DNA of 64,000 bases from Bacillota bacterium (GCA_029961055.1 JASBVM010000012.1:55741-119740); one strand, 5' to 3'; positions 11,501 to 25,215 are shown, counted from the stretch's first letter. Notes: generated by a model not told the origin, from the letters alone. Numbers and translations are program-made.

Positions 11501-12103
11501 CTACCGATCCTCCTCTGTCACGGCTCGTGCCCCCCCGCGCTCTGCAACCCCGCGGTGCAAACCGGGAGCGGCGTGGACCCGGTCCTCGCTCTCTCCCCCT
11601 CCGCCCTCCGGTACCTCCTTCGCCGGCCCCTCGGACCTCTCCGTCCGCTCCGCCCTCTCCGCCTGTTCGACGACCCGCTCCAGCAGAAGGGCCAGCTGTT
11701 CTTGCTCGGCCTCGCTCAAAGGCTCCAGGAGAAGTTCCAGCGACTGGAACAGGCGATCGCGCCAGGCCTGCACCTGGCCGAACCCGCGGGGTGTCAGGCG
11801 CACCTTGACGACCCGTTCGTCGCCCGTCTGCCGCTCGCGCCGGACGAAGCCACACCGCTCCAGCCGCTTGCAGGCCACGGTGACCGAACTCGGGCTGATG
11901 CCGAGCTGCGCCGCCAGCTCGCCGATGGACGTCGGACCGGACCTCTCCAGGTGCCGCAGCAGCCAATACTGCTCCGGCGTCATCTCACCGCGGCGCACGG
12001 GATGCGTGCGGCGGCGGAGAAGGCGCCAGAGCGCGATGAACGCATGGACGAACCTCTCGCTGGCCGTGGCCCCCGCCCCCTGTCCGGATTGTAGACGATG
12101 CAC
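11501..12103 (-). CDS. MarR family transcriptional regulator
   Basis: ERFVHAFIALWRLL..LTPEQYWLLRHLERSGPTSIGELAAQLGISPSSVTVACKRLERCGFVRRE winged-helix. Start taken as GTG 12103; the alternative ATG 12178 overlaps the divergent -10 box. Confidence 0.7.
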   Translation of the reverse strand: MHRLQSGQGAGATASERFVHAFIALWRLLRRRTHPVRRGEMTPEQYWLLRHLERSGPTSIGELAAQLGISPSSVTVACKRLERCGFVRRERQTGDERVVKVRLTPRGFGQVQAWRDRLFQSLELLLEPLSEAEQEQLALLLERVVEQAERAERTERSEGPAKEVPEGGGGESEDRVHAAPGLHRGVAERGGARAVTEEDR

Positions 12104-12144
12104 GCCCCGTCGTTCCGTGACGGAACGTGGCGTCCCGCTTCGGG

Positions 12145-12173
12145 TTGCACGGGGCGGGGGTCCAGGGTATATT
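12145..12173 (+). promoter_or_regulatory. Sigma-A type promoter for yceI-like gene (TTGCAC-17 nt-TATATT)
   Basis: Near-consensus -35/-10 with 17-nt spacer about 40 nt upstream of the ATG at 12215, in the divergent marR/yceI intergenic region. Confidence 0.45.
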
Positions 12174-12214
12174 TTCATAGTCGTCGAAATACCTGTGCCA
12201 AGGGAGGCTTGGGG

Positions 12215-12784
12215 ATGTCGGTCGGTCAAGCTGCTGAGGAGACGAGCCGGAGCGGCACCGTCTGGAAGGTGGACCCAGTCCACACCACGGTGGAGTTCTC
12301 CGTCCGCCACATGATGATCGCCACGGTGCGCGGCCAGTTCACGCAGGTCGCCGGCGAGCTGCGCGGGGACCCGGACAACCTGCCGGGCTGCCAGATCGAG
12401 GGGGTCATCCAGGCGGCCTCCGTCGATACACGCGAACCCAACCGGGACGCGGACCTCCGGTCCGCCAACTTCTTCGACGTCGAGCGCTACCCGGAGATCC
12501 GCTTCGAGAGCCGGAGCATCACATCCCGCGGCGGGGGAGACGAGTACGAGGTCCTCGGCGACCTGACCATGCACGGCGTCACCCACCCCGTCACCCTTAC
12601 CCTCACCCTCGAAGGTCAGATTCGGGACCCCTACGGCCACCAGCGCGTCGGCTTCACCCTGGAAGGCTCGCTCAACCGGAAGGATTGGGGCCTCAACTGG
12701 AACGTGGTGCTGGAAGCCGGCGGAGTGATGGTCAGCGACCAGGTGAAGATCGTCGTCCACGTCGAGGCGGTCCGGCAGGACTGA
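12215..12784 (+). CDS. YceI family (polyisoprenoid-binding) protein
   Basis: WKVDPVHTTVEFSVRHMMIATVRGQF...DVERYPEI.F....G.L..HGVT.PV is the YceI signature; AGGGAGG RBS. Confidence 0.85.
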   Translation: MSVGQAAEETSRSGTVWKVDPVHTTVEFSVRHMMIATVRGQFTQVAGELRGDPDNLPGCQIEGVIQAASVDTREPNRDADLRSANFFDVERYPEIRFESRSITSRGGGDEYEVLGDLTMHGVTHPVTLTLTLEGQIRDPYGHQRVGFTLEGSLNRKDWGLNWNVVLEAGGVMVSDQVKIVVHVEAVRQD

Positions 12785-12945: not shown

Positions 12946-13320
12946 GTGAAGCGGATCCGGGTTGAGATCGTGGGGCTTCTTCCGGAATTCTTCAACATGT
13001 GCGCCGCCTGCCAGGGGATGGACGTCCTCCAGGTGGCCCGGCTGGATTACGCCCGCGACCAGTTGGGCGACTACCCGCCCGAGGTGGCGGAGGAGCAGCA
13101 ACGGGCGGTGGAGGTGGTCCATGCGCTGGTGACCGAGTTCGGCTCCGCCGTCGAGCCGGTCACCGTGGATGCCTACTCGCCCCAAGGGCTCTGGCTCACC
13201 CTCCGGCACCGGATCGGCAGGGGCCCGGCCCTGATCGTGGCGGGTCGCCACGTCGTCCGCCAGCTCTCGCCGACGGCGGCCTGCGAGGCGGTGAGGGAGG
13301 AGCTGCGGGCCTCGGCCTGA
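12946..13320 (+). CDS. Small CxxC protein, possibly YuzD-like (DUF1462, thioredoxin fold)
   Basis: VEIVGLLPEFFNMCAACQG ... GPALIVAGRHV resembles the YuzD pattern (VELxVYGAExICASCVN ... IVAEG). GTG start with GAAGGGAGG RBS. Confidence 0.4.
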   Translation: MKRIRVEIVGLLPEFFNMCAACQGMDVLQVARLDYARDQLGDYPPEVAEEQQRAVEVVHALVTEFGSAVEPVTVDAYSPQGLWLTLRHRIGRGPALIVAGRHVVRQLSPTAACEAVREELRASA

Positions 13321-13484
13321 ACCCGCCCAGCCTGTCCCAGGTTTTCCGGCGGTCGTCCGCGTCGTCGTTTCCCTTTGAGTCGGCCCCTTCGCCCCAATAG
13401 AAGGATTTCGTTCTTCGCCGGTCGAATCCACGTTTCACAGCGCCGCCGGTCACGGCGGTGACGCTTCCTCGGGGAGGGAGAGCT

Positions 13485-15209
13485 GTGACGACGCCGTTCT
13501 GGTTCGTGGTGGCGGCCCTGGTCTTCTACGCCATCGCCTACCTGGTCTACGGCCGCTGGTACGATCGGACGGTCTGGAGACCGGACCCGAAGCGGACCAC
13601 GCCGGCCCACATGTACATGGATGGCGTGGAGTTCTTCCCGGCGAGCCGCTATGTGCTCTGGGGGTACCAGTTCAAGAGCGTCGCCGCCCTGGGACCGATC
13701 CTGGGCCCCTTCATCGCTCTCCAGTATGGCTGGCTTCCCGCCTTGATCTGGATCATCTTGGGCAACTTCTTCATCGGGTGGCTTCAGGACTACGGGGCCA
13801 TCATGGTCTCGGTGCGGAACAACGGACGCTCCTTCGGCCCCATCGCGTACGAGTTCACGGGCGCCAGCGGGCGCAGCACCCTGCTCGGTTTCATCCTGTT
13901 CTACCTGCAGATGATCTCCGCCACCTTCGTCTTCTTCATCGCCCAGTTCTGGAACTCGCTCCCCGGCACCTTCGCGGCCACCGTAGGGGTCATCATCACG
14001 GCGGTCATCGTCGGCCAGCTGATGTACAAGGTTCGCCTCAACGTGGGGTTGACCACGTTGATCGGTCTCGTCCTGGTCGCTCTCTCCGTGGTCGCCGGGG
14101 TCTACCTCCGGACCCCCACCGATCCCTTCGGCGCCTGGTCGATCCCGTTCTGGGCGGCCCTGGTCGGCGTCTTCCTCTTCGTCGCGTCGGTGGTACCGCT
14201 GCCCTCGCTGATCCAGCCGATGAACTTCATCAGCTTCTTCCCCACCTTCCTCGCGGTGCTGCTGATCATCGTCGGCGGGCTGCTCTCGCCGGTCTTCCAC
14301 GTCCCCCTGCAGCAGCCGGCCTGGAAGGGCTTCTGGTCGCCGAACACCGGGCCGCTCTGGCCCATGATGTTCCTGGCCATCGCCTGCGGCGCCATCTCCG
14401 GCTGGCACAGCCTGGTGGGCAGCTCCACCACGGCCAAGCAGCTGGACCTGGAGACCGACGCGCACCCCGTGGGCGCGGGCGCCATGCTGTCGGAGGGCCT
14501 GGTGGCGCTCGCCTCGCTGGCCGCCTACATGGTGCTGGCACCCGGCGAGATCACCAAGAACACCACCGCCTGGGTCGCGGGAGCGATCCGCCTGACGGAA
14601 GGCTTTCTCGGCGGACCGGGAGCGGCCGCCTTCCTGGCCACTTTCTTCGGCGTCTCGCTGGTGCTCTACGCCATCACGGTCCAGTCGCTGGTCACCCGCT
14701 TCTGGCGCCTCATCTCCGCCGAGGTCGCCGGCCAGGGGCGCTTCGCCGTGCTCGGCCAGAAGCACGTGGCCACCTTCCTCGGCATCCTGATCGCCTGGCT
14801 CTTCGCCGTCTCGGGCTCGTGGAACAACCTCTGGCTCTACTTCGGCGGCTCCAACCAGCTGCTGGCCGGCTTGGCGCTGATGCTGGTCTCCATCCACCTG
14901 GCCAGGGCGCGGAGCCAGACCGGCTGGACCTTCTGGCCGGCCATGTTCATGATCGTCACCACCATCTTGGGCCTCGCCTACCAGACCTACATCTTCGCGA
15001 AGGCGGTCTACACGGGGAAGACGCTGGTCCAGCCGCCCCTGGGCAACATCGCTTGGGCGGCACACACCCTGGACGGCATCTTCACCGTGGTGGGCGTGGT
15101 GCTGATCGTCCTCGGCGTCCGCATGGCCATCATGACGCTCCGCTCGTACTTCGCAGCGCGGGCACGCCCGGTCTCCATGGTGGGCGAGTCGGCCAGCCCG
15201 GCGCGCTGA
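13485..15209 (+). CDS. cstA: Carbon starvation protein A (peptide/pyruvate transporter CstA family)
   Basis: 575-aa polytopic protein with the full-length CstA pattern (WGYQFKS..LGPI.GP..A.Q.GWLPA..WI..G); GTG start after GGGAGGGAG. Confidence 0.9.
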   Translation: MTTPFWFVVAALVFYAIAYLVYGRWYDRTVWRPDPKRTTPAHMYMDGVEFFPASRYVLWGYQFKSVAALGPILGPFIALQYGWLPALIWIILGNFFIGWLQDYGAIMVSVRNNGRSFGPIAYEFTGASGRSTLLGFILFYLQMISATFVFFIAQFWNSLPGTFAATVGVIITAVIVGQLMYKVRLNVGLTTLIGLVLVALSVVAGVYLRTPTDPFGAWSIPFWAALVGVFLFVASVVPLPSLIQPMNFISFFPTFLAVLLIIVGGLLSPVFHVPLQQPAWKGFWSPNTGPLWPMMFLAIACGAISGWHSLVGSSTTAKQLDLETDAHPVGAGAMLSEGLVALASLAAYMVLAPGEITKNTTAWVAGAIRLTEGFLGGPGAAAFLATFFGVSLVLYAITVQSLVTRFWRLISAEVAGQGRFAVLGQKHVATFLGILIAWLFAVSGSWNNLWLYFGGSNQLLAGLALMLVSIHLARARSQTGWTFWPAMFMIVTTILGLAYQTYIFAKAVYTGKTLVQPPLGNIAWAAHTLDGIFTVVGVVLIVLGVRMAIMTLRSYFAARARPVSMVGESASPAR

Positions 15210-15243
15210 ACGGCAGGCAGGCAGTCGGCCAGAAACCGGCGCC

Positions 15244-15266
15244 GGGCAGGGCGCAGTGCCCTGCCC
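15244..15266 (+). terminator. Stem-loop GGGCAGGGC-gcagt-GCCCTGCCC downstream of cstA (GC-rich terminator without a clear U-tract)
   Basis: Perfect 9-bp inverted repeat 35 nt after the cstA stop. Confidence 0.35.
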
Positions 15267-15298
15267 TGGCGCCACTTCAGGGGACGAGGTGAGGGAGA

Positions 15299-15610
15299 TT
15301 GCTCTGGCGACGGAAGAAGACCGAAAAGGAGAACCCTTCCCAGGCTGAGGGCACGGAGAAGCAGGGCTTGGGAACGGCGATGAAGGACGTCCTCTACGGC
15401 ATGGCCTCCCACGGGAACGTGACCGCGGCACTCCGGACGCGCATGTACATGGAGCACCTCTTCATGTTCATCACCCTGGGCGACATGCTGGGCATCCCCG
15501 TTCTGCCGCCCTACTACTCGCTCCGGATCCTCCCGTACGCGGTGCCCAACATCGAGTCCTGGAAGCAGCGGGTCTTCCGCGAGCGCGACTTCACCGACGC
15601 GCTCTACTAG
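15299..15610 (+). CDS. Small protein of an unrecognised family (paralog of 18908-19270), first gene of the ArsA-pair operon
   Basis: TTG start after GAGGTGAGGGAG RBS; high GC3. The C-terminal half MEHLFMFITLGDMLGIPVLPPYYSLRILPYAVPNIESWKQRVFRERDF aligns with DLIRLMIFGEFLGLPLMNASVGLRLLPYALEGLPGWRERLSQEFDI of the minus-strand paralog. Confidence 0.5.
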   Translation: MLWRRKKTEKENPSQAEGTEKQGLGTAMKDVLYGMASHGNVTAALRTRMYMEHLFMFITLGDMLGIPVLPPYYSLRILPYAVPNIESWKQRVFRERDFTDALY

Positions 15611-15663
15611 CCGGATCGCAACGTCCAGCGTCCGGCGAGATGAGATCACCGGAGGTGAACCCC

Positions 15664-16662
15664 TTGAAGCCGGCTGGGCTCAAAGCCTACTTCGACGCAC
15701 ACCCCGAGATCCGCGTCGCCATCTTCGCCGGCAAGGGCGGGCTGGGAAAGACGACGTCCAGTTCCTCCCTCGCCTACTACCTGGCCACCGAGAAGAAACG
15801 GAAGACGCTTCTCTTCAGCACCGACCCCCAGGCCTCGCTGTCGGACATCTTCGAGCAGAACTTCTTCGGCAAGGGCGTCATCGAGGTGATCCCCAACCTC
15901 TTCGTGGTCGAGATCGACGCCGACCGTCGGGTGGCCGAGTACCAGGCCGGCGTCAAGCAGAAGATCCGCGACATGTACGGCCTGGCGGAACTGCCCCGGG
16001 AGATCGAGGAGTACATCGACTCCTCCTCCGCCGAGCCGTCCATGTACGAATCGGCCACCTACGACGCCATGGCCGAGCTGGTGGCGGCCAACGAGTTCGA
16101 CATGTACATCTTCGACATGCCGCCCTTCGGTCACGGCGTGCGCATGGTCGCCATGGCCGAGATCCTCTCCAAGTGGGTGGAGAAGATCACCGAGGCACGC
16201 AGCCAGGTGGCGGAGTATGAGCAGGTCGCCGCCTCGCTCAAGGGCGAGCGCGCGCAGGAAGATGCCATGATGGCCGAGCTGCTCGACATCCGCCAGCGGA
16301 TCACCACCTTCACCGACCTGATCACCAACCAGACCAGCACCGGTTTCTTCATGGTGCTGATCCCGGAACAGATGGCGATCCTGGATACCGACCGGGCCCT
16401 GGCCATGTTCTCCGAGCTGGGCATCCAGCTCTCCGGCCTGATCGTCAACCAGGTCTACCCGCCCGAGCTGCTGGAGCAGCCCAACCTGAGCGAGTTCCTG
16501 CGCAACCGCCTGGAGGGCCAGCGTCCCTACCTCCAGGAGATCGAGCGCAAGTTCGGCGAGAGGGTTCTCTCCGTGGTACCGATGTACACCCGTGAGCCGA
16601 AGGGGCTGGAGATGATCGCGCGGGCCAGCGCCGACCTGATGGAGTGCAAGGTGGCTGTCTAG
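15664..16662 (+). CDS. ArsA/GET3-family anion-transporting-type ATPase, half-size (one nucleotide-binding domain), copy 1
   Basis: P-loop AGKGGLGKTT and DMPPFGHG (DTAPTGHT-like switch II). TTG 15664 preferred (GGAGG 8 nt upstream; N-terminus then aligns with copy 2); ATG 15640 is the alternative. Confidence 0.85.
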   Translation: MKPAGLKAYFDAHPEIRVAIFAGKGGLGKTTSSSSLAYYLATEKKRKTLLFSTDPQASLSDIFEQNFFGKGVIEVIPNLFVVEIDADRRVAEYQAGVKQKIRDMYGLAELPREIEEYIDSSSAEPSMYESATYDAMAELVAANEFDMYIFDMPPFGHGVRMVAMAEILSKWVEKITEARSQVAEYEQVAASLKGERAQEDAMMAELLDIRQRITTFTDLITNQTSTGFFMVLIPEQMAILDTDRALAMFSELGIQLSGLIVNQVYPPELLEQPNLSEFLRNRLEGQRPYLQEIERKFGERVLSVVPMYTREPKGLEMIARASADLMECKVAV

Positions 16663-16720
16663 ACGACCCGGGCGGATGCGCTCCCGCGCCCGACCCAGGA
16701 AGGGAGGACGATCCCCGACC

Positions 16721-17746
16721 ATGCAGAGCCTGAGCGAGTTCCTCGAGGAGCATCCCAACCTGCGCTTCGTCTTCACCGGCGGGAAGGGCGGGGTCGGCAA
16801 GACCGTCAGCGCCGCCGTCCTGGCCTACCACTTCGCCCGGCAGGGCAAGCGGACGCTGCTGGCCTCGCTCAACCCCGTCCACTCCCTCTCCAGCCTCTTC
16901 GGCCAGGACCTCTCCGGCGGCCAGGTGCGGCCGGTCCAGGGAGTCGACAACCTCTTCGCCATCGAGGTGAACACCGAGGACGCGGTCCAGCGCTACCGCG
17001 ACAGCGTCAGCACCCGCATCCGGGAGTTCCTGCGCTACGCCGACATCCCGGTGGACGCCCGTCCCTTCATCGACATCGCCATGACCAACCCGGCCTTCGA
17101 GGAGTCGGCGATGTTCGACAAGATGACCGACATGATGCTGATGCAGTCCGGCGAGTACGACCGCATCGTCTTCGACACGGCCGCCGTCGCCAACGCCGTC
17201 CGGCTGATCGGCCTCTCCAAGATCTACGGCCTCTGGCTGGGGCGGCTGATCGAAAGCAGGAAGGAGGCGCTCTCGCTGCGCGTCCAGCTCTCCTTCCGCA
17301 AGGAGAAGGTGATGGAAGAGGTCCGGCAGGATCCGATGATGGCCGACCTGATCGGCATGAACGACCGCTTCGAGAGGGTGAAGGGGCTCCTGGTCGATCC
17401 GGAGACCACCGCCTTCTTCTTCGTCACGCTGCCGCTCTCGCTGCCCATCTCGGTGGTCAAGCGCTTCATCGAGATGGTGCGCGCCTACGACATCCCGGTG
17501 GGTGGCGTGATCGTCAACGAGGTGATCACCCGCGACGCGCTCGGCGAGGAGCCGGACGAGTACCTGCGCAACAAGTTCGCCGAGCAGGGGAGCTACCTGC
17601 AGACCATCCAGGCCGACCTCGGCCCGCTGGTCCGCACCTACCTGCCGCTCTACCCGCGCGAGGTGGTCGGCCTGGAGGCGGTCGACCGGGTGGCCGAGGA
17701 CATGTTCCGGCCCAGCCAGGACCTGGCCGCCGAGCTGCCCGCCTGA
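16721..17746 (+). CDS. ArsA/GET3-family ATPase, half-size, copy 2 (degenerate switch II)
   Basis: P-loop GGKGGVGKT is intact, but the DTAPTGH position reads DTAAVANA. GGAAGGGAGGA RBS; 58 nt after copy 1. Confidence 0.85.
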   Translation: MQSLSEFLEEHPNLRFVFTGGKGGVGKTVSAAVLAYHFARQGKRTLLASLNPVHSLSSLFGQDLSGGQVRPVQGVDNLFAIEVNTEDAVQRYRDSVSTRIREFLRYADIPVDARPFIDIAMTNPAFEESAMFDKMTDMMLMQSGEYDRIVFDTAAVANAVRLIGLSKIYGLWLGRLIESRKEALSLRVQLSFRKEKVMEEVRQDPMMADLIGMNDRFERVKGLLVDPETTAFFFVTLPLSLPISVVKRFIEMVRAYDIPVGGVIVNEVITRDALGEEPDEYLRNKFAEQGSYLQTIQADLGPLVRTYLPLYPREVVGLEAVDRVAEDMFRPSQDLAAELPA

Positions 17747-17783
17747 GGGCCGGCCGGTCTCCTCCACCGCGCGGAGGCGAGCG

Positions 17784-18266
17784 ATGGGCGAGCACCTGAT
17801 TGCCGCGCACAACCTGATCCTGGGCACCGTCAACTTCCTGGTGCTCAGCCTGCCGGAGGGGTGGGGGCTGAGCGACCCGGGAGGTCCTCCCGAGGTGGAG
17901 TCGCGGGTCCTGCGCGACGGCGTCTCCTGGGCCCGGGACGGCCAGGCCGCCTACCTCCTCCGGCTCGCCGACGGCCGCCTGGCCCGTCTCGACCTCCGCG
18001 CCGGTCCGGCGACTCCTCCCGTCCCGAGCGGCTTCCGCCCCGAGCGGCCGGTCGCGGAGGTCCCTGTGGGCGGCCACCCCGCCCGCGCCGAGTCGGGGCG
18101 GGCGCGCCCCTTCCTGGGACGGTTCGGCCGGGCCCGGCCGGTCCTGACGCTGGCCTTCCGCTGCCCCGAGACCGACCGGGGGCTGCGGCTCTCCGTCTGG
18201 GGGGAGCTGCGGCCCGAGGAGCGGGAGGAGCTCCTGCAGAGCCTGGCTGCCGTCGCCTGCCACTGA
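17784..18266 (+). CDS. Hypothetical protein (160 aa), last gene of the ArsA-pair operon
   Basis: High GC3 coding signal; hydrophobic N-terminal segment AHNLILGTVNFLVLSL; no recognised domain. Confidence 0.45.
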   Translation: MGEHLIAAHNLILGTVNFLVLSLPEGWGLSDPGGPPEVESRVLRDGVSWARDGQAAYLLRLADGRLARLDLRAGPATPPVPSGFRPERPVAEVPVGGHPARAESGRARPFLGRFGRARPVLTLAFRCPETDRGLRLSVWGELRPEEREELLQSLAAVACH

Positions 18267-18309
18267 CACCGCCCACCGCCGGACGGCACCTCCCGGCCCT
18301 GAGCAGAGC

Positions 18310-18335
18310 GGCCCCCGGGGCGCTTCCCGGGGGCC
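18310..18335. terminator. Bidirectional stem-loop GGCCCCCGGG-gcgctt-CCCGGGGGCC between convergent operons
   Basis: Perfect 10-bp stem between the 17784-18266 (+) and 18353-18859 (-) gene ends. Confidence 0.4.
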
Positions 18336-18352
18336 GTGCGCTTCCGCCCGTC

Positions 18353-18859
18353 TCACGCCAGGCCGGCGGCGCGCTGGCGGAGGTTCCGAAAGGCGGCGGC
18401 CACGGTCGCCTCCGGGGGCCCCTCCAGCGGCACCGCCAGGTGCAGGTGCGGATGCTGGCGCCGGAGCTCGAGGACCGAACCCGCCGGCAGGCCGGGCAGC
18501 TGCTCCGGACCTTCCAGGAGCAGCTCACGCGCGGGCTGCCGGAGGAGGTCCGCCTCGATCACCAGCTGGTCCCCGCGCCGGCGCCAGAGCGTCCAGAGAA
18601 TGGCCAGCGGCGCCTCGCGCCCGGCCAGGAGCGCCAGCACGGCCACGGCGCGGAAAGGCGAGCCGACGCCCTCCAGGTCGATGCGGAAGGCGGAGCCTCC
18701 GTGCCAGCGGATGGTGGCGGAGCCGGCCAGCTCCCGCAGCTCCGGTCGCAGCGCCGCCAGCACCCGCTCGGCCCGCCGCCGGTTGACCCAGGCCCCGGCC
18801 ACCCACCAGACGGCCAGGAGCCCGGCCAGCGCGAAGACCAGCCCATTCTCTGCGGACAC
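18353..18859 (-). CDS. Hypothetical N-terminally membrane-anchored protein (168 aa)
   Basis: GTG start; LVFALAGLLAVWWVAGAWV signal-anchor; last gene of the minus-strand four-gene cluster. Confidence 0.45.
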   Translation of the reverse strand: MSAENGLVFALAGLLAVWWVAGAWVNRRRAERVLAALRPELRELAGSATIRWHGGSAFRIDLEGVGSPFRAVAVLALLAGREAPLAILWTLWRRRGDQLVIEADLLRQPARELLLEGPEQLPGLPAGSVLELRRQHPHLHLAVPLEGPPEATVAAAFRNLRQRAAGLA

Positions 18860-18907
18860 GCCTCTCCCCCCGCCTCCGGGCCACGCCTCGCCGGCTCAGC
18901 CGGCGGT

Positions 18908-19270
18908 TCAGTCCACGTGGGGCAGCTCGTCCACGATGTCGAACTCCTGGGAGAGCCGCTCCCGCCAGCCCGGCAGCCCCTCCAGGGCATAGGGGAGCAG
19001 GCGCAGGCCGACGGAGGCGTTCATCAGCGGCAGGCCGAGAAATTCGCCGAAGATCATCAGGCGGATCAGGTCGTCCAGCTTCCTGGCCTGCTCGCGGGTC
19101 TCGCGGTAGGTGTCGTAGAAGAAGAGGCCCCAGGCGAACTGGCGGAGTCCCTCCCGCCAGCCGGGACGCCCGCGCCGGCCGCCGTCTCCCGTCTCAGTCC
19201 CCGCCGTCCTCCCCACCTCCCGGAGCCGCCGCCCCCCGGGCCCGGGCGTTTCCATCTCTCCCGCGCTCAT
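18908..19270 (-). CDS. Small protein (120 aa), paralog of 15299-15610
   Basis: ATGA start/stop overlap with the upstream gene. The C-terminal region LRQFAWGLFFYDTYRETREQARKLDDLIRLMIFGEFLGLPLMNASVGLRLLPYALEGLPGWRERLSQEFDIVDEL is homologous to the plus-strand small protein. Confidence 0.55.
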   Translation of the reverse strand: MSAGEMETPGPGGRRLREVGRTAGTETGDGGRRGRPGWREGLRQFAWGLFFYDTYRETREQARKLDDLIRLMIFGEFLGLPLMNASVGLRLLPYALEGLPGWRERLSQEFDIVDELPHVD

Positions 19271-20092: not shown

Positions 20093-21100
20093 TTACTCCG
20101 CTTTCTGCCCGCCGTCGAAGCGCCAGATGCCGCCTTCCCGGACCATCCTGGCGGTGTAGACGACGTTTTCCGTCATTCCCTCCAACTGGAAGGTCCCCTG
20201 CAGCCGCACCTCCGCCCGCTGGCCCTCGCCGGTCTTGGCGTCGCCTCCCACCGGCCGGCCCGCCTCCGCGGTGTAGCCCCGGTAGCTCCCCAGGCCCTCC
20301 GCCCAGGCGGTGACGTCCACGGCCGCGGGCTTCCCGTACCGGGCGCGCAGCCCGGGTCCCATCAACCGCCACATGGCCTCGCGGTCGGGGATGGCCGCGA
20401 TCCAGAGATCCAGCGCCTCCTCCGGTGCCAGACCCCGCACCAGCTCCGAATCCAGCGGAGGCAGAAGCCGCCGGAAGAGGAAGCCCTCCCCCGTGAAGGG
20501 ATGCTCCTCGCTGCCCACCCGCGCCCCCTCCACCCGCAGCTCGACGCCCTTGACGCCCTGGACGGAGGCGGCCGTCAGCGCGATCTGGTCGAGGAGCGTC
20601 CCGACCGCCAGCGTCCCGCCCGCCTGCTCCAGCTCGCCGGAGAAGTCGAGCACCGCCACCGGCCGGGCCACCTCCACCCCGAGCAGCCGGGTCCCCCGGG
20701 GCAGGGCGCTGGCCCACCCGGCCCGCCGCTCTTCCTCGGTCGGCCCGGAGAGAAGCGCCTCCATCGCCGCCCTCAGCCGCGCGTGCACGTCGTCCGGGCG
20801 CACCCCCTCCGGCAGCGGGCGGCGGACCGGGGCGAGGACGGGCCGCTGTCTCCCGCCTCCGCTCCCGTGCACGAAGTAGACCGCCAGGGCGGGCTCGCCC
20901 TCGGGTGCGGGCCCTTTCCGGGAGGGGGGCGCCCCTTGGCTGGCGCCTCCGGGAGCCGGTCCCGTCCCCGCCCCCGTCCCCGACCCCACCCCGACCCCCT
21001 GCCCGCAACCGGCGCCCAGCAGGAGAAGGGCGAGGAGCAGCGCGCTCCCCAGGCGCCGGCCCGCCCGTCGCCATCCGCCTTTCCGATGCCGCACGTCCAT
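20093..21100 (-). CDS. Lipoprotein with GerMN (sporulation/germination GerM-like) domain
   Basis: Signal peptide plus lipobox LLLLGAGC; low-complexity linker; LAVYFVH...G.. and a second beta-rich repeat typical of GerMN domains. Confidence 0.65.
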   Translation of the reverse strand: MDVRHRKGGWRRAGRRLGSALLLALLLLGAGCGQGVGVGSGTGAGTGPAPGGASQGAPPSRKGPAPEGEPALAVYFVHGSGGGRQRPVLAPVRRPLPEGVRPDDVHARLRAAMEALLSGPTEEERRAGWASALPRGTRLLGVEVARPVAVLDFSGELEQAGGTLAVGTLLDQIALTAASVQGVKGVELRVEGARVGSEEHPFTGEGFLFRRLLPPLDSELVRGLAPEEALDLWIAAIPDREAMWRLMGPGLRARYGKPAAVDVTAWAEGLGSYRGYTAEAGRPVGGDAKTGEGQRAEVRLQGTFQLEGMTENVVYTARMVREGGIWRFDGGQKAE

Positions 21101-21187
21101 CCCTCCGCGCTCCTTGGACGCGCCAGCGGCCTGCGGGTTCCCCGCGCCGGAGCCGGAGACCTCCTCTCCCGCCGGCCCAGGTTATCT

Positions 21188-22552
21188 ATGGTAGGATACG
21201 AAGCGACCGTTCACGCTCGGACCAACCCCTTTCCTCCCCCCGGAGGTGTTCGCTCGACGGACAAGCGGCCGTCCCTGCGCCTGAGCGGAGCCTTCTCCGC
21301 CTTGCGCCACCGGAACTTCCAGCTCTTTTTCGCAGGTCAGACCGTCTCGCTGGTGGGCACCTGGATGCAGAACGTGGGCCAGGGCTGGCTCGTCCTCCAG
21401 CTGAGCGACTCTCCCTGGGTGCTGGGCATGGTCAGCGCGCTCCAGTTCGTGCCCTTCCTGATCTTCTCGCTGGTGGCGGGGGCGCTGGTCGACCGGATGG
21501 CGAAGCGGCGCCTCCTGGTGGCCACCCAGAGCACCCTCGCCCTTCTCGCCCTGGTCCTGGGGCTTCTGACGCTCTCCGGCCAGGTGCGCGTCTGGCACGT
21601 GATGGTGCTCGCCTTCCTGACCGGGACGGTGCAGAGCTTCGACAACCCGGGGCGGCAGGCGTTCCTGGTCGAGATGGTCGGGCGGGAAGACCTGATGAAC
21701 GCCATCTCGCTCAACTCCTCCACCTTCAACGGCGCCCGCCTGGTGGGGCCGGCCGTGGCGGGGCTGGTCATCGGCGCGGCGGGAGCAGGCTGGGCCTTTC
21801 TGCTCAACGCGGCCAGCTTCGTCGCCGTGATCGCCGGCCTCCTGATGATGCGCCTCGAGCCCGGCCGCGAACGGCCCGTCCACGCCCCGCTGCTCAAGGA
21901 AGTGGTGGGCGGCCTGGATTACGTCCGCAAGACCCCGGCGGTGCTGGTCACCATCCTCCTGATCGGCGTCATCAGCACCTTCGCTCTCAACTTCAACGTC
22001 CTGATGCCGGTCTTCGCGCGCTACACGCTCCGGGCGGGCCCGGAGATCTACGGCTACCTCATGTCCGCCATGGGCTCGGGCGCGCTGGCGGGCGGCCTGG
22101 TCCTGGCCTACCTCTCGCGCTGGGGTCCGCGGCGGGAGATCCTCCTGGGCGGGGCGCTCCTCTTCACCACCGGCGTCACCGTCCTGGGCTTCGTCCGGCA
22201 GTTCGTGCCGGCGATGCTCCTCCTCTTCCTGATCGGCTTCGCCATGATCGGCTACACCGCCACCTCCAACAGCACCATCCAGGTGACGGTGCCCGACCAG
22301 CTGCGCGGGCGCGTGATGAGCCTCTACGTGATGGTCCTCAACGGCGTCGCCCCCGTGGGCGCGCTCTTCGTCGGCGGGCTCGCCCAGCGCTGGGACGCGG
22401 GGGCCGGTTTCCTGGTCGGGGGCGCCGTCAGCCTGGCGGCCGTGCTGGCCGCCCTGGCGCTGCGCAGGCGCTGGGACCCCGACCTCCGGCCGGCACCTGC
22501 GGTGCGCGGGGGCGCGGCAGGCTGCCCGCGCCAGGGGGAGGGGGGCGCCTGA
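21188..22552 (+). CDS. MFS transporter (EntS/MFS_3-like)
   Basis: FSALRHRNFQLFFAGQTVSLVGTWMQNVGQGWLVLQLS N-terminal MFS_3 signature; 12 TM. Start at ATG 21188 is uncertain. Confidence 0.8.
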   Translation: MVGYEATVHARTNPFPPPGGVRSTDKRPSLRLSGAFSALRHRNFQLFFAGQTVSLVGTWMQNVGQGWLVLQLSDSPWVLGMVSALQFVPFLIFSLVAGALVDRMAKRRLLVATQSTLALLALVLGLLTLSGQVRVWHVMVLAFLTGTVQSFDNPGRQAFLVEMVGREDLMNAISLNSSTFNGARLVGPAVAGLVIGAAGAGWAFLLNAASFVAVIAGLLMMRLEPGRERPVHAPLLKEVVGGLDYVRKTPAVLVTILLIGVISTFALNFNVLMPVFARYTLRAGPEIYGYLMSAMGSGALAGGLVLAYLSRWGPRREILLGGALLFTTGVTVLGFVRQFVPAMLLLFLIGFAMIGYTATSNSTIQVTVPDQLRGRVMSLYVMVLNGVAPVGALFVGGLAQRWDAGAGFLVGGAVSLAAVLAALALRRRWDPDLRPAPAVRGGAAGCPRQGEGGA

Positions 22553-23820
22553 TGGGTGGCCGGCGGACGGAGGATCGCCCGCCCCGCCCCGACCGGCGCC
22601 TGCCGGCCACCGTCTGGGCGGCCGGGCTGGTCAGCCTGCTCACGGACATCTCCACGGAGATGATCGTCCCGGTGCTCCCCCTCTTCGTCACCGAGACGCT
22701 CCACGCCGGGGCGGGCGCGCTGGGACTCCTGGAGGGCGTGGCGGAGAGCACCGCCAGCGTCCTCCGCGTCGCCTCCGGCTGGTTCTCCGACCGGATCGGC
22801 CGCAGGAAGCCCCTGATGCTGGCCGGCTACGGCTTCTCCAACCTGGTCAAGCCGCTCTTCGCGCTCTCCACGAGCTGGATCCAGGTGCTGGGCATCCGCT
22901 TCCTGGACCGCTTCGGCAAGGGGATCCGGGGAGCCCCCCGCGACGCGCTCCTGGCGGAGGTGACGCCGCTGGAGGATCGCGGCCGCTCCTTCGGCCTCCA
23001 CCGGGCGCTGGATACGCTGGGGGCGGCGCTGGGACCGCTCCTGGCGGCCTGGCTCCTGGCCTCGGCGCCCGGCCGGTACCGGACCATCTTCTGGGTCTCG
23101 GCCATTCCCGGCACGCTGGCCGTGCTGATCCTCCTCTTCGCCGTCCACGAGCCCGCGCCCGGTCGCTCCGCCCGCGCCGTGGAGGGGCGGAAGGGGGAAC
23201 CCGCCCCGAGCGGGCGGGTGTCGGATCTCGGGGGCGCCTTCCTCTGGCTGCTGGCGGCCGCGACGCTCTTCTCGCTGGGCAACTCCTCCGACGCCTTCCT
23301 GATCCTGAAGGCACGGAGCACCGGCCTGGATGACTCGCTGGTACCGCTGGCCTACTTCCTCCTGAACGCGGTCTACTCCGCCGCGTCGTACCCCCTGGGG
23401 GCGCTCTCCGACCGGGTGGGACGCTTCCCGCTGGTGCTCGGCGGCTGGGTCGCCTTCGCCCTGATCTACGCGGGCTTCGCCCTCGCCTCCCGGCCGCCGG
23501 CCATCTGGTTCCTCTTCGCCGTCTACGGGGTGTATTACGCTGCGACGGAAGGGATGCTGCGGGCGCTGGCCGCCGACCTGGTGCCCGCACCGCGCCGGGC
23601 GACGGCGCTCGGCCTGCTCAACGGGCTGACCGGCGTGGCGCTCCTTCCCGCCAGCGTGGTGGCCGGGTGGCTCTGGCAGAGCGTGGCGCCCGCCGCGGTC
23701 TTCTGGTTCGGTGCCGCCACGGCGCTGGCCGCGGCCCTCCTCCTCCTGGCCGGCCGCAGGAAGCTCCTCGCCGGCGTGGAGGCCGGCGCCGGAGGGGACC
23801 GGGCGGCTCCGTCGAGCTAG
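22552..23820 (+). CDS. MFS transporter
   Basis: 12-TM protein with GWFSDRIGRRKPLMLAG MFS motif A; ATG overlaps the preceding stop (TGATG). Confidence 0.8.
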   Translation: MGGRRTEDRPPRPDRRLPATVWAAGLVSLLTDISTEMIVPVLPLFVTETLHAGAGALGLLEGVAESTASVLRVASGWFSDRIGRRKPLMLAGYGFSNLVKPLFALSTSWIQVLGIRFLDRFGKGIRGAPRDALLAEVTPLEDRGRSFGLHRALDTLGAALGPLLAAWLLASAPGRYRTIFWVSAIPGTLAVLILLFAVHEPAPGRSARAVEGRKGEPAPSGRVSDLGGAFLWLLAAATLFSLGNSSDAFLILKARSTGLDDSLVPLAYFLLNAVYSAASYPLGALSDRVGRFPLVLGGWVAFALIYAGFALASRPPAIWFLFAVYGVYYAATEGMLRALAADLVPAPRRATALGLLNGLTGVALLPASVVAGWLWQSVAPAAVFWFGAATALAAALLLLAGRRKLLAGVEAGAGGDRAAPSS

Positions 23821-23826
23821 GGAGGG

Positions 23827-25215
23827 ATGCGGGTGAGGCCGTCGCTGGGCGAGGCGATCGGGCGGCTGCCGGCGCTCTTCACCGGCTTCGCCCTGGGCCA
23901 CTTCGCCCTGGGCGCGCTCCTCGGCGCCTGGATGGCGCTCCGGCCGGCCGTCGTCCCCCTGCTCCGGCCGCTCCACGAGGTGCTCAACCCCTGGGGCTGG
24001 CTCACCTTCCTCATCTACGGGGTGACCTACGCCATGCTCGCCCTCCTCCTGGGACGCCAGGCACCCTGGCCCTGGCTGGGGCGGCTGCACCTGGCGGTGG
24101 CGGAGTCGGCCATCTGGCTCCTGGTGGCCGCCGACGTCGGCTCCTCCGCCCCGCTGGCCACGGCCGGGCTGGCGCTCCAGGCGGCGGCGCCCTGGCTCTT
24201 CCTGGCCAACCTCATGAGCGCGGTCTTCTTCGGCAGCCGCCTCGACCGGGAGGCGCTGGCCGAGTCGGCCAGCCGCCTGCTGGCCCGCCGGGCGGAGCGG
24301 GCCGGGCGGCCCGCTCCCGCTCGGCATCCGCGGCGGGCGGCTCGCCCGGCACCCTGGATCCACCTGCTCGCCCGCTCCGAGGTGGCCCGGAGCACCGATC
24401 CGGTGGGCCGGCGCGGGACGGAGCTGGCGGCGCTGGCCCTGCTGCTGGCGGCGGCCCTGGAGGCGGGGCCGCTCTTCGGTCGCTCGACCCTCTCCCTGCC
24501 CTACGTCGCCACCCCCGCCGGGGGACTCCTCCTCCGCTACGGCTGGATCGCGGGCACGCTCCTGGCCGTGCCGCTCCACCTCCTGCCGCGCTGGCTCGGC
24601 TACGGCGCCGTCCGCCGGCGGGGCGGCGAGCTGGTCCAGCTCCTCTGGCTGCCCGCGCTGGCGCTGGCGGCGGCCGGCCTGGCGCGGGGCGCCTGGTCGC
24701 TGGCGGCGGTGGGAAGCCGGCTGCTGGGGCTGGCCTTCCTCTACGCGGCCGCGCTCTACCTGGCGCCCGGCCGCCGCCTGCGGCGGCTGGGCCCACCGCT
24801 GGCCCTCGCCTGGAACGCGGGCTGGGCCTTCGCGGCGGTCCTGGGGCTCGCGCTCCTCCTCGGGCTCGACCCGCTCTCGCCGCTGGCCACCCACCTGGCG
24901 CTCCTGGGCTGGGCGACCACCCTGGCCTACGGCGTCGGTTACGCCCTGTTCCCCCTCTTTCTCCGGCGGCGACCGCGGGCGGTGGGGCTCTCCCTCCTCC
25001 AGCTCGCCCTGGCCGTGGCCGGTGTGGCGCTGATGGCGCTGGGCTTCCTCCTGGGGGAAGGCGGGAGCGCGGCGGGAGGCCTTCCCTCGGGGGAGGGACT
25101 CCTGGCCGCGGGCGGCTCGCTGGCCGCCGTCGCGGCGCTCCTCTACGCCCTGCTCTGGCTTCCCGGCCGCTCCCCTGCGGAGGAACCGGGCGGGGAACCG
25201 GGCGGGGAAGGCTAA
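23827..25215 (+). CDS. Hypothetical polytopic membrane protein (462 aa)
   Basis: GGGAGGG RBS 7 nt after the MFS stop; very high GC3; more than 10 predicted TM helices; no recognised family. Confidence 0.5.
   Translation: MRVRPSLGEAIGRLPALFTGFALGHFALGALLGAWMALRPAVVPLLRPLHEVLNPWGWLTFLIYGVTYAMLALLLGRQAPWPWLGRLHLAVAESAIWLLVAADVGSSAPLATAGLALQAAAPWLFLANLMSAVFFGSRLDREALAESASRLLARRAERAGRPAPARHPRRAARPAPWIHLLARSEVARSTDPVGRRGTELAALALLLAAALEAGPLFGRSTLSLPYVATPAGGLLLRYGWIAGTLLAVPLHLLPRWLGYGAVRRRGGELVQLLWLPALALAAAGLARGAWSLAAVGSRLLGLAFLYAAALYLAPGRRLRRLGPPLALAWNAGWAFAAVLGLALLLGLDPLSPLATHLALLGWATTLAYGVGYALFPLFLRRRPRAVGLSLLQLALAVAGVALMALGFLLGEGGSAAGGLPSGEGLLAAGGSLAAVAALLYALLWLPGRSPAEEPGGEPGGEG

Follow-up and report, generated by a model that had tools for sequence, protein, structure and literature searches.

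Two small genes on opposite strands lie on either side of a tandem pair of genes for ArsA/Get3-family ATPases (ArsA1 and ArsA2) in a 64,000-nucleotide stretch of DNA from a Bacillota bacterium (GCA_029961055.1, JASBVM010000012.1:55741-119740; hereafter the window). The question raised by this locus is what the products of the two genes, SP1 and SP2, are and how they relate to the ATPases. The sequence-only reading, a first description of this DNA, had placed them in an unrecognised family and had likened their arrangement to that of chaperone or targeting systems. It is very likely that SP1 and SP2 are two members of the protein family DUF7990 (Pfam PF25952), previously named CstX, and that the module to which they belong is the one that joins this family to a CstA-type permease and to the ATPase pair. 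An adaptor or a client role of the two proteins is plausible. The features of the locus are collected in Table 1.

Both open reading frames (ORFs) exist where the sequence-only reading had put them, and the similarity that it described is significant in formal alignments. BLASTP gives 33% identity between SP1 and SP2 over 52 amino acids (E=2e-11), reproducing the alignment drawn in the sequence-only reading, and the alignment reaches ~75 amino acids when homologues are added, extending from 'VLYGMA' in SP1 and 'FAWGLF' in SP2 to the carboxyl terminus. The NCBIfam model NF041419, which is independent and curated, matches both proteins with E~5e-8. On the basis of these alignments SP1 and SP2 are confirmed as true paralogues. 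No third DUF7990 copy was found in the window.

The start of SP1 is supported by a strong Shine-Dalgarno-like sequence, GAGGTGAGGGAGA, just 5' of the initiation codon and by a basic amino terminus, MLWRRKK, that is common to its homologues, which feature MLFGRKR or MFWKKK at this position. SP2 corresponds to the last 120 codons of a longer, mechanically defined ORF. Its first ~45 residues are of low complexity and not conserved, so its true start is uncertain.

The family of the two proteins can be recognised from their close relatives. More than 1297 homologues of SP1 are present in a large protein collection, typically ~96 amino acids long and 67-92% identical, and all carry a precomputed PF25952 assignment. 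SP2 has three close homologues (P0121, P0122 and P0123), all assigned to PF25952, of which P0121 is 99% identical over 120 amino acids. A 76-amino acid product of the closest related locus, annotated PF25952:DUF7990, is exactly residues 28-103 of SP1. Membership of SP1 and SP2 in PF25952 is thus read indirectly, via the tags of near-identical proteins; a Pfam scan of the two sequences gave no match, the Pfam copy used being older than PF25952. A profile search of 1.8 billion representative proteins retrieved 412 DUF7990 clusters at E<=1e-3.

NF041419 describes the 'cory-CC-star protein', and SP1 and SP2 score 32.3 and 32.9 bits against its curated cut-off of 80. Residues 45-96 of SP1 and 50-109 of SP2 align with positions 10-71 of the 80 positions of the profile, and the model matches 99 of 99 diverse DUF7990 members, all below its cut-off (best E=4.5e-12). 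DUF7990 and cory-CC-star have a homologous core in common, but the carboxyl-terminal Cys-Cys implied by the cory-CC-star name is not a feature of DUF7990: it was seen in none of the DUF7990 members listed, and SP1 and SP2 end in FTDALY and ELPHVD, respectively. Profile matches of this kind identify the DUF7990 proteins as distant relatives of cory-CC-star, a named but distinct NCBIfam family.

The association of such proteins with CstA and ArsA homologues was already described. Castillo and Saier reported in 2010 that cstA is clustered with arsA homologues in 26 genomes, that a ~90-amino acid protein called CstX is also present in 24 of these, and that a ~210-amino acid protein with a single transmembrane segment (TMS), CstY, is found in five archaea (PMC2963123). 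Their survey also contains genomes in which two ArsA genes are neighbours (Symbiobacterium thermophilum and Pyrobaculum arsenaticum) and two archaea with a pair of CstX paralogues; Thermococcus kodakarensis is listed with such a pair. CstA, CstX and ArsA were shown to have co-evolved, and CstX was suggested to connect permease and ATPase, so that transport would be energised by ATP (PMC2963123). As in the window, CstX has a length of ~90-100 amino acids and is encoded with a CstA permease and single-domain ArsA homologues of ~330 amino acids. A locus from an S. thermophilum metagenome-assembled genome (MAG) has the order CstA (580 amino acids), DUF7990, ArsA (340 amino acids) and ArsA (343 amino acids), and the sizes of its ATPases match those published for Sth2 and Sth1, 339 and 345 amino acids (PMC2963123). 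The equation of CstX with DUF7990 is a strong one drawn from this context, the 2010 paper giving no CstX sequences or accessions. Two paralogues were treated there as exceptions, while they are the rule in the loci compared here; a degenerate ArsA2, a thioredoxin-fold protein and a His/Cys protein were not described. Literature queries for PF25952, DUF7990, cory-CC-star and BagA/BagB gave nothing useful and no mention of DUF7990; the name CstX in this sense was found in the 2010 paper alone, with no later use in the library searched.

A genome scan with one genome per species identified 80 loci with an SP1-type gene. The proteins of the window were compared with these loci by tblastn, 33 of which have wide flanks. 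The bacterial loci belong to Bacillota (Symbiobacteriaceae and Thermaerobacter), Chloroflexota, Terriglobia and Thermodesulfobacteriota, and the archaeal ones to Thermoplasmata, Bathyarchaeia, Thermoproteota, Geothermarchaeota and to MAGs of Thor- and Sif-archaea. ArsA1 and ArsA2 are encoded directly 3' of the SP1-type gene in 61 of the 63 loci with enough flank, and 31 of the 33 wide loci also have a second DUF7990 gene, bearing out the co-occurrence of the small protein pair with tandem ArsA genes. CstA precedes the SP1-type gene immediately in 51 of 65 loci and is found in 31 of the wide ones. Proteins related to the 160-, 168- and 124-amino acid products of the window are less frequent (26, 23 and 18 wide loci, respectively). 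Distant family members have the bare order CstA - DUF7990 - DUF7990 - ArsA - ArsA. Over 82 related loci, the conserved core consists of a single permease of the CstA family together with two paralogues each of DUF7990 and of the ArsA/Get3-like ATPase.

Clustering of DUF7990 proteins over the loci defines a type A, to which SP1 belongs, with one gene per locus (83 sequences, tail RDFTDxxY/F). Its divergent partner is either a type B protein such as SP2 (tail xAPxIH) or, in Bathyarchaeia, another type. Type B orthologues cluster apart from type A and are 35-51% identical to SP2 in most related loci, while SP1 identity is 55-93% across bacterial and archaeal phyla. In one archaeal locus (L081) SP1 is 72% identical to its counterpart, the ATPases 64-66%, CstA 51% and SP2 46%. 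By sequence identity, type A exceeds all other components of the module in conservation. The rule is one highly conserved type A gene directly 5' of ArsA1 and one divergent partner. In the window this partner, SP2, is displaced into the convergent operon. Six other loci (L055, L057, L058, L071, L079 and L082) have an inverted or displaced CstA gene, and in these the DUF7990 pair stays with the ArsA pair.

The DUF7990 subfamilies differ chiefly in their carboxyl-terminal tails. Next to those of types A and B these read EHDYHLHG[LV], LTDLCDQEIT or LIEGID, and, in Bathyarchaeia, DITEKxRE; several are rich in His. The amino terminus of type A is basic and aromatic (M-L/F-W/F-K/R-K/R-K).

Seen against this conserved organization, the picture drawn from the window alone changes in several respects. 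SP1 had been regarded as the leading gene of the ArsA operon, but the CstA gene lies 89 bp upstream on the same strand, an arrangement that is conserved. SP1 and SP2 do flank the ATPase pair by position, but two more conserved genes, for the 160- and 168-amino acid proteins, separate ArsA2 from SP2. The proposed translational coupling of SP2 to a 260-amino acid hypothetical protein is visible as an overlap of the SP2 ATG with the stop codon of that ORF (GCATGA), but it is not a conserved trait: the 260-amino acid and GerM genes were found in 1 of the 33 wide loci, that of the closest relative. The comparison to chaperone or targeting systems rightly linked the small proteins to the ATPases but overlooked the conserved CstA, and with CstA taken into account the best-supported setting is an ATPase module associated with a transporter rather than a soluble system for chaperoning or targeting.

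The two ATPases are 33% identical and score well above the cut-offs of PF02374 (226 bits for ArsA1 and 189 bits for ArsA2, cut-off 24.3) and TIGR00345 (215 and 198 bits, cut-off 135). Both are single-domain proteins, unlike the arsenical-pump ArsA, which has two domains in ~580 amino acids, and they reach only 94.5 and 96.9 bits with its model TIGR04291 (cut-off 650). The P-loop GKGGLGKT, the switch I STDPQASLS and the switch II FDMPPFGHG of ArsA1 are constant in an alignment of 81 rows wherever the columns are filled, with 2-3 rows gapped at these positions. ArsA2 retains the P-loop over 73 orthologue rows. Its switch I reads S[LT]NPVHSL, Asn replacing the Asp of ArsA and Get3, and its switch II reads FDTAAVANA or FDTAPTANA and lacks PTGH, these being the only forms among the commonest listed. 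In the window the switch I residues concerned are D62 of ArsA1 and N66 of ArsA2. The degenerate motifs recur in three distant modules.

The switch I Asp is catalytic or Mg-binding in ArsA and Get3; its substitution in Get3 (D57N) gives a trap mutant, and D45 is the equivalent residue of ArsA. By analogy to this established work, ArsA2 is predicted to bind ATP without hydrolysing it and the pair would be an obligate asymmetric heterodimer. The motifs conserved in the two orthologue sets suggest that an active ATPase subunit has lastingly been paired with a dead one. Among solved structures, the closest are those of archaeal Get3 (3ug6, E=1.4e-52 with ArsA1, and 3zq6) and of the Chlamydomonas protein also named ArsA1.

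An AlphaFold2 model of SP1, built from an alignment of 99 sequences (mean predicted local distance difference test score 77), has a helix of 41 residues (24-64), followed by a loop where the conserved GIPVLP lies and then by three short helices. The shape predicted by this model is elongated and helical, unlike that of a globular enzyme and such as is typical of subunits that fold onto their partners. No solved structure resembling SP1 or DUF7990 was found by comparing a DUF7990 profile to PDB sequences or by a Foldseek search of the PDB with the SP1 model.

CstX was scored as having a single TMS (PMC2963123). The most hydrophobic stretch of SP1 covers residues 52-81, after which only ~22 residues remain. 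Such a position near the carboxyl terminus, together with the published TMS and with archaeal Get3 as the nearest solved homologue of both ATPases, might indicate a Get3-like targeting system in which ArsA1 and ArsA2 capture a hydrophobic hairpin of a DUF7990 client and insert it into the membrane as a small subunit of CstA. This is unlikely. The maxima of Kyte-Doolittle hydropathy over 19 residues are 1.41 for SP1 and 1.49 for SP2, under the usual threshold of 1.6 for transmembrane helices, and near-invariant motifs (G-D/E, G-x-P, PP and L-R) break up the segment. The model splits it into a helix end, a Pro-rich loop and an 11-residue helix rather than a single transmembrane helix of 20 residues. 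The hydropathy values and these motifs make the single TMS of CstX doubtful. Type A proteins are also conserved over their whole length, unlike a membrane anchor, and two ATPase genes for insertion of two tiny proteins seem uneconomical.

The position of SP1 behind CstA has a parallel in Escherichia coli. There ybdD lies directly 3' of cstA, and the CstA paralogue gene btsT is adjacent to yjiX (DUF466) and to the gene yjiA of a P-loop GTPase, all on one strand (K-12, 4587909-4591279). The latter group repeats the layout of the module, a transporter followed by a small protein and a P-loop NTPase, with a small protein for which no homology to DUF7990 was detected. In pyruvate uptake, a ybdD deletion mutant has the phenotype of a cstA deletion mutant (PMC5847655). 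YbdD and YjiX are DUF466 proteins that end in Arg-Cys-Cys, are present in single copy and, for YjiX, have a P-loop GTPase as neighbour, while DUF7990 proteins lack such an end, come in two copies and accompany an ArsA pair. A similar order of short motifs (GIP...Y and FRER), noted by eye, raised the possibility that DUF7990 is homologous to YbdD and YjiX, and this was rejected. None of SP1, SP2 and 99 DUF7990 members matched PF04328 (E<=10), with YbdD as positive control giving E=1.6e-30, and hhalign of the DUF7990 alignment to E. coli YbdD gave a probability of 0.4%, a weak test since it was made with a single YbdD sequence.

This parallel could be taken to mean that the DUF7990 proteins are accessory subunits of CstA only, comparable to YbdD, and that the ArsA pair acts elsewhere and is linked to them by co-regulation alone. 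SP1 follows CstA directly as ybdD does in E. coli, YbdD is needed for CstA function, and CstX was reported never to occur without CstA (PMC2963123). Such a division is very improbable. The type A gene directly precedes ArsA1 at nearly all loci, the pattern of two DUF7990 for two ArsA genes is kept even in distant modules, and the DUF7990 pair remains next to the ArsA pair where CstA is inverted or displaced.

The module has further conserved partners. The 124-amino acid protein encoded 5' of CstA has a CxxC motif and a predicted thioredoxin fold, according to an AlphaFold2 model made from an alignment of 7 sequences (the homologue search gave 3 close matches). Its first Cys is conserved but the second is not universal. 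Fusions of a thioredoxin-like part, at the amino terminus, to the second DUF7990 occur on independent contigs (P0221, P0161 and P0137), and P0161 sits in a cluster of the order CstA - fusion - DUF7990 - ArsA - ArsA. In locus L089 (8001-8648), too, a domain of the 124-amino acid type and the second DUF7990 form one fused protein encoded inside the cluster. The 160-amino acid protein had no match in Pfam, NCBIfam or PDB sequences; Cys127 is part of a C-x-E-T-x-R motif, and its invariant columns make it a candidate for a four-ligand metal site. The 168-amino acid protein, whose orthologues have 165-230 amino acids, has a Kyte-Doolittle maximum of 2.12 at residues 7-25 and probably corresponds to CstY. 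The 260-amino acid protein had no match in Pfam or NCBIfam and a homologue only in the closest relative (L007/L003), a distribution that identifies it as a lineage-specific addition outside the conserved system.

The Cys and His residues of these proteins bring into play a relay of metal, metalloid or thiol ligands, as in a metallochaperone of the SIMIBI type or in an ArsD/ArsA-like system, with the DUF7990 proteins as ligand carriers. In such a relay a thiophilic ligand would be handed to CstA, or taken from it, by the CxxC protein, the His/Cys/Cys/His protein and the second DUF7990 with its His-bearing tails. It would find a use for H98, C127 and C159-H160 of the 160-amino acid protein, for the conserved first Cys of the thioredoxin-fold protein and for the xAPxIH tails of type B or the HEHHLHG[LV] ends of other subfamilies. 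The cory-CC-star relative and the YbdD/YjiX analogue end in Cys-Cys, and the neighbour of E. coli yjiX codes for a P-loop GTPase. The relay is nevertheless quite improbable. Type A, the invariant core subunit, has neither a conserved Cys nor a carboxyl-terminal His motif, ArsA2 has no Cys and ArsA1 a single one near its carboxyl terminus (residue 336), and the second Cys of the CxxC motif is not universal. A profile search of the 124-amino acid protein against PDB sequences gave no match to ArsD, and no ars genes were found among the ORFs of the window near the module, arsB, arsR and arsC being absent.

The best explanation as a whole, to which we give an even chance, takes SP1 and SP2 as the CstX/DUF7990 subunits of a conserved CstA-DUF7990-ArsA module, an identity that is by itself very likely. 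The proposed mechanism, in which they would act as adaptors that couple the ATPases to the permease, is more tentative and falls a little short of an even chance. ArsA1 and ArsA2 would be obligate partners in a heterodimer that hydrolyses ATP at one site only. An adaptor close to the membrane would be made up of the two DUF7990 proteins, which are small and mostly helical; each would touch one ATPase protomer, and together they would dock the heterodimer on the cytoplasmic face of CstA. Binding and hydrolysis of ATP might then drive or gate transport by CstA, with the thioredoxin-fold CxxC, His/Cys/Cys/His and CstY-like proteins as accessory, regulatory or ligand-handling parts. This reading is favoured because the gene content of one permease, two DUF7990 and two ATPases is constant, because type A lies directly 5' of ArsA1 and is extremely conserved, and because the DUF7990 pair keeps to the ArsA pair where CstA is inverted.

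An ATP-driven or ATP-gated CstA would be analogous to the ArsA-ArsB pump, in which the carrier ArsB becomes a pump through ArsA, and to the need for YbdD in the CstA-dependent pyruvate uptake of E. coli. The module resembles the ArsA-ArsB(-ArsD) system in combining a SIMIBI ATPase of two homologous halves with a permease of the secondary-carrier type and in having a thioredoxin-fold accessory protein. It differs in that the halves are separate genes, one of them degenerate, in the lack of metalloid-binding cysteines and in CstA being the permease. NCBIfam also names a pair of distinct ArsA-like ATPases in Mycobacterium tuberculosis, BagA and BagB, but the window proteins score only 32-50 bits with their models (NF053622 and NF053621), far under the cut-offs of 400 and 521.

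The fold family of ArsA1 and ArsA2 is that of Get3/TRC40, and two different small helical partners per ATPase dimer recall the Get3 dimer with Get1 and Get2. A bolder reading is that the five-gene core is a prokaryotic membrane-receptor system for a Get3-type ATPase in which the DUF7990 pair takes the role of the cytosolic domains of Get1 and Get2. Unlike the Get3 system, the module has no Get1-, Get2- or WRB-like proteins, and no classical tail-anchored client is evident. This reading is rather improbable. If true, it would describe a nucleotide-driven clamp docked on a polytopic membrane protein; the result would be a CstA transporter of a new, ATP-driven class or else a machine dedicated to insertion and assembly. 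It could also bear on the origin of the pairing of Get3 with its receptor, the module being found in Asgard archaea, Thermoproteota, Thermoplasmata, Bathyarchaeia, thermophilic Bacillota and Chloroflexota.

Several points weigh against the adaptor mechanism. To our knowledge, those transporters of the CstA family that have been characterised are coupled to protons and do not depend on an ATPase. Among solved structures, the ones nearest to the ATPases belong to archaeal Get3, a targeting factor and not a pump subunit. The E. coli precedent is an analogy in architecture only, because DUF7990 is not detectably homologous to YbdD or YjiX. A simple coupling model leaves the conserved Cys and His residues of the accessory proteins unexplained. 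Lastly, one type A gene (L018, 5167-5433) is not part of such a cluster: its product is 82% identical to SP1, and neither CstA nor ArsA was found in the 5 kb upstream and the 10 kb downstream of it. The gene may be a genuine orphan or stem from mis-assembly of the MAG.

By eye, the neighbours of this L018 gene are a long hydrolase-like ORF on one side and seemingly unrelated metabolic genes on the other. Three fused proteins were set aside. The tandem DUF7990-DUF7990 protein P0001 was dropped as a proxy for a heterodimer since MAFFT placed every homologue on one half only; P0001 and P0004 are singletons that look like frameshift products or chimeras of neighbouring genes, and they have no Rosetta-stone value. 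A CstA::DUF7990 fragment, P0124, comes from a single record (SRC, SRR5439155), lacks the last CstA helix and was not used as evidence.

Table 1. Features of the CstA-DUF7990-ArsA locus in the window (positions counted from its first nucleotide)
Feature	Position	Strand	Remarks
Accessory thioredoxin-fold protein (predicted), 124 aa, CAAC motif	12946..13320	+	Frequent module member
CstA-family permease, 583 aa	13458..15209	+	Pfam PF02554, E=1.7e-107; membrane partner of the module
SP1, type A DUF7990 (CstX), 103 aa	15299..15610	+	TTG start; homologues in PF25952
ArsA1, ArsA/Get3-family ATPase, 340 aa	15640..16662	+	PF02374, E=7e-67; catalytic motifs intact
ArsA2, paralogous ArsA/Get3-family subunit, 356 aa	16676..17746	+	PF02374, E=1.6e-55; switch I and II degenerate
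Conserved protein after ArsA2, 160 aa	17784..18266	+	Invariant His98, Cys127, Arg132 and Cys159-His160
Membrane-anchored protein, 168 aa, candidate CstY	18353..18859	-	Amino-terminal transmembrane helix; NRRR motif
SP2, type B DUF7990 (CstX), 120 aa as annotated	18908..19270	-	Divergent second paralogue
Hypothetical protein, 260 aa	19267..20049	-	Coupled to SP2; outside the conserved module

The upstream flank (11501-12784) codes for a MarR-type regulator and a YceI-like protein, assigned by synteny with the closest relative, where they have Pfam matches. The downstream flank (20093-24000) codes for a GerM (Germane) lipoprotein and MFS transporters. Both are syntenic solely with this closest relative, the MAG Bacillota Bu54. 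The window has ~73% G+C, and many long overlapping antisense ORFs, such as 13173-15431 on the minus strand, are artefacts of this composition. A simple promoter scan detected no sigma-70-like sites in the region, so operon boundaries are based on spacing and synteny alone.

The DUF7990 family is thus already in Pfam, and its association with cstA and arsA was described in 2010 together with a linker hypothesis. New beyond that work are the rule of paired types A and B, the invariant ATPase subunit predicted to be dead, three further conserved partners and the thioredoxin::DUF7990 fusions. The module is widespread and its type A protein strongly conserved between phyla of bacteria and archaea, yet none of its components has been the subject of experiments. 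The textbook example of a SIMIBI-class ATPase that makes a pump of a secondary carrier is ArsAB. Should the adaptor model hold, the module would be a second and far more widespread case of an ATPase-converted carrier, and it would provide a function for DUF7990 and for many pairs of 'ArsA family ATPase' encoded outside ars operons. The pairing of a competent with a degenerate ATPase, and of a conserved with a divergent small protein, offers a clear and testable architecture.

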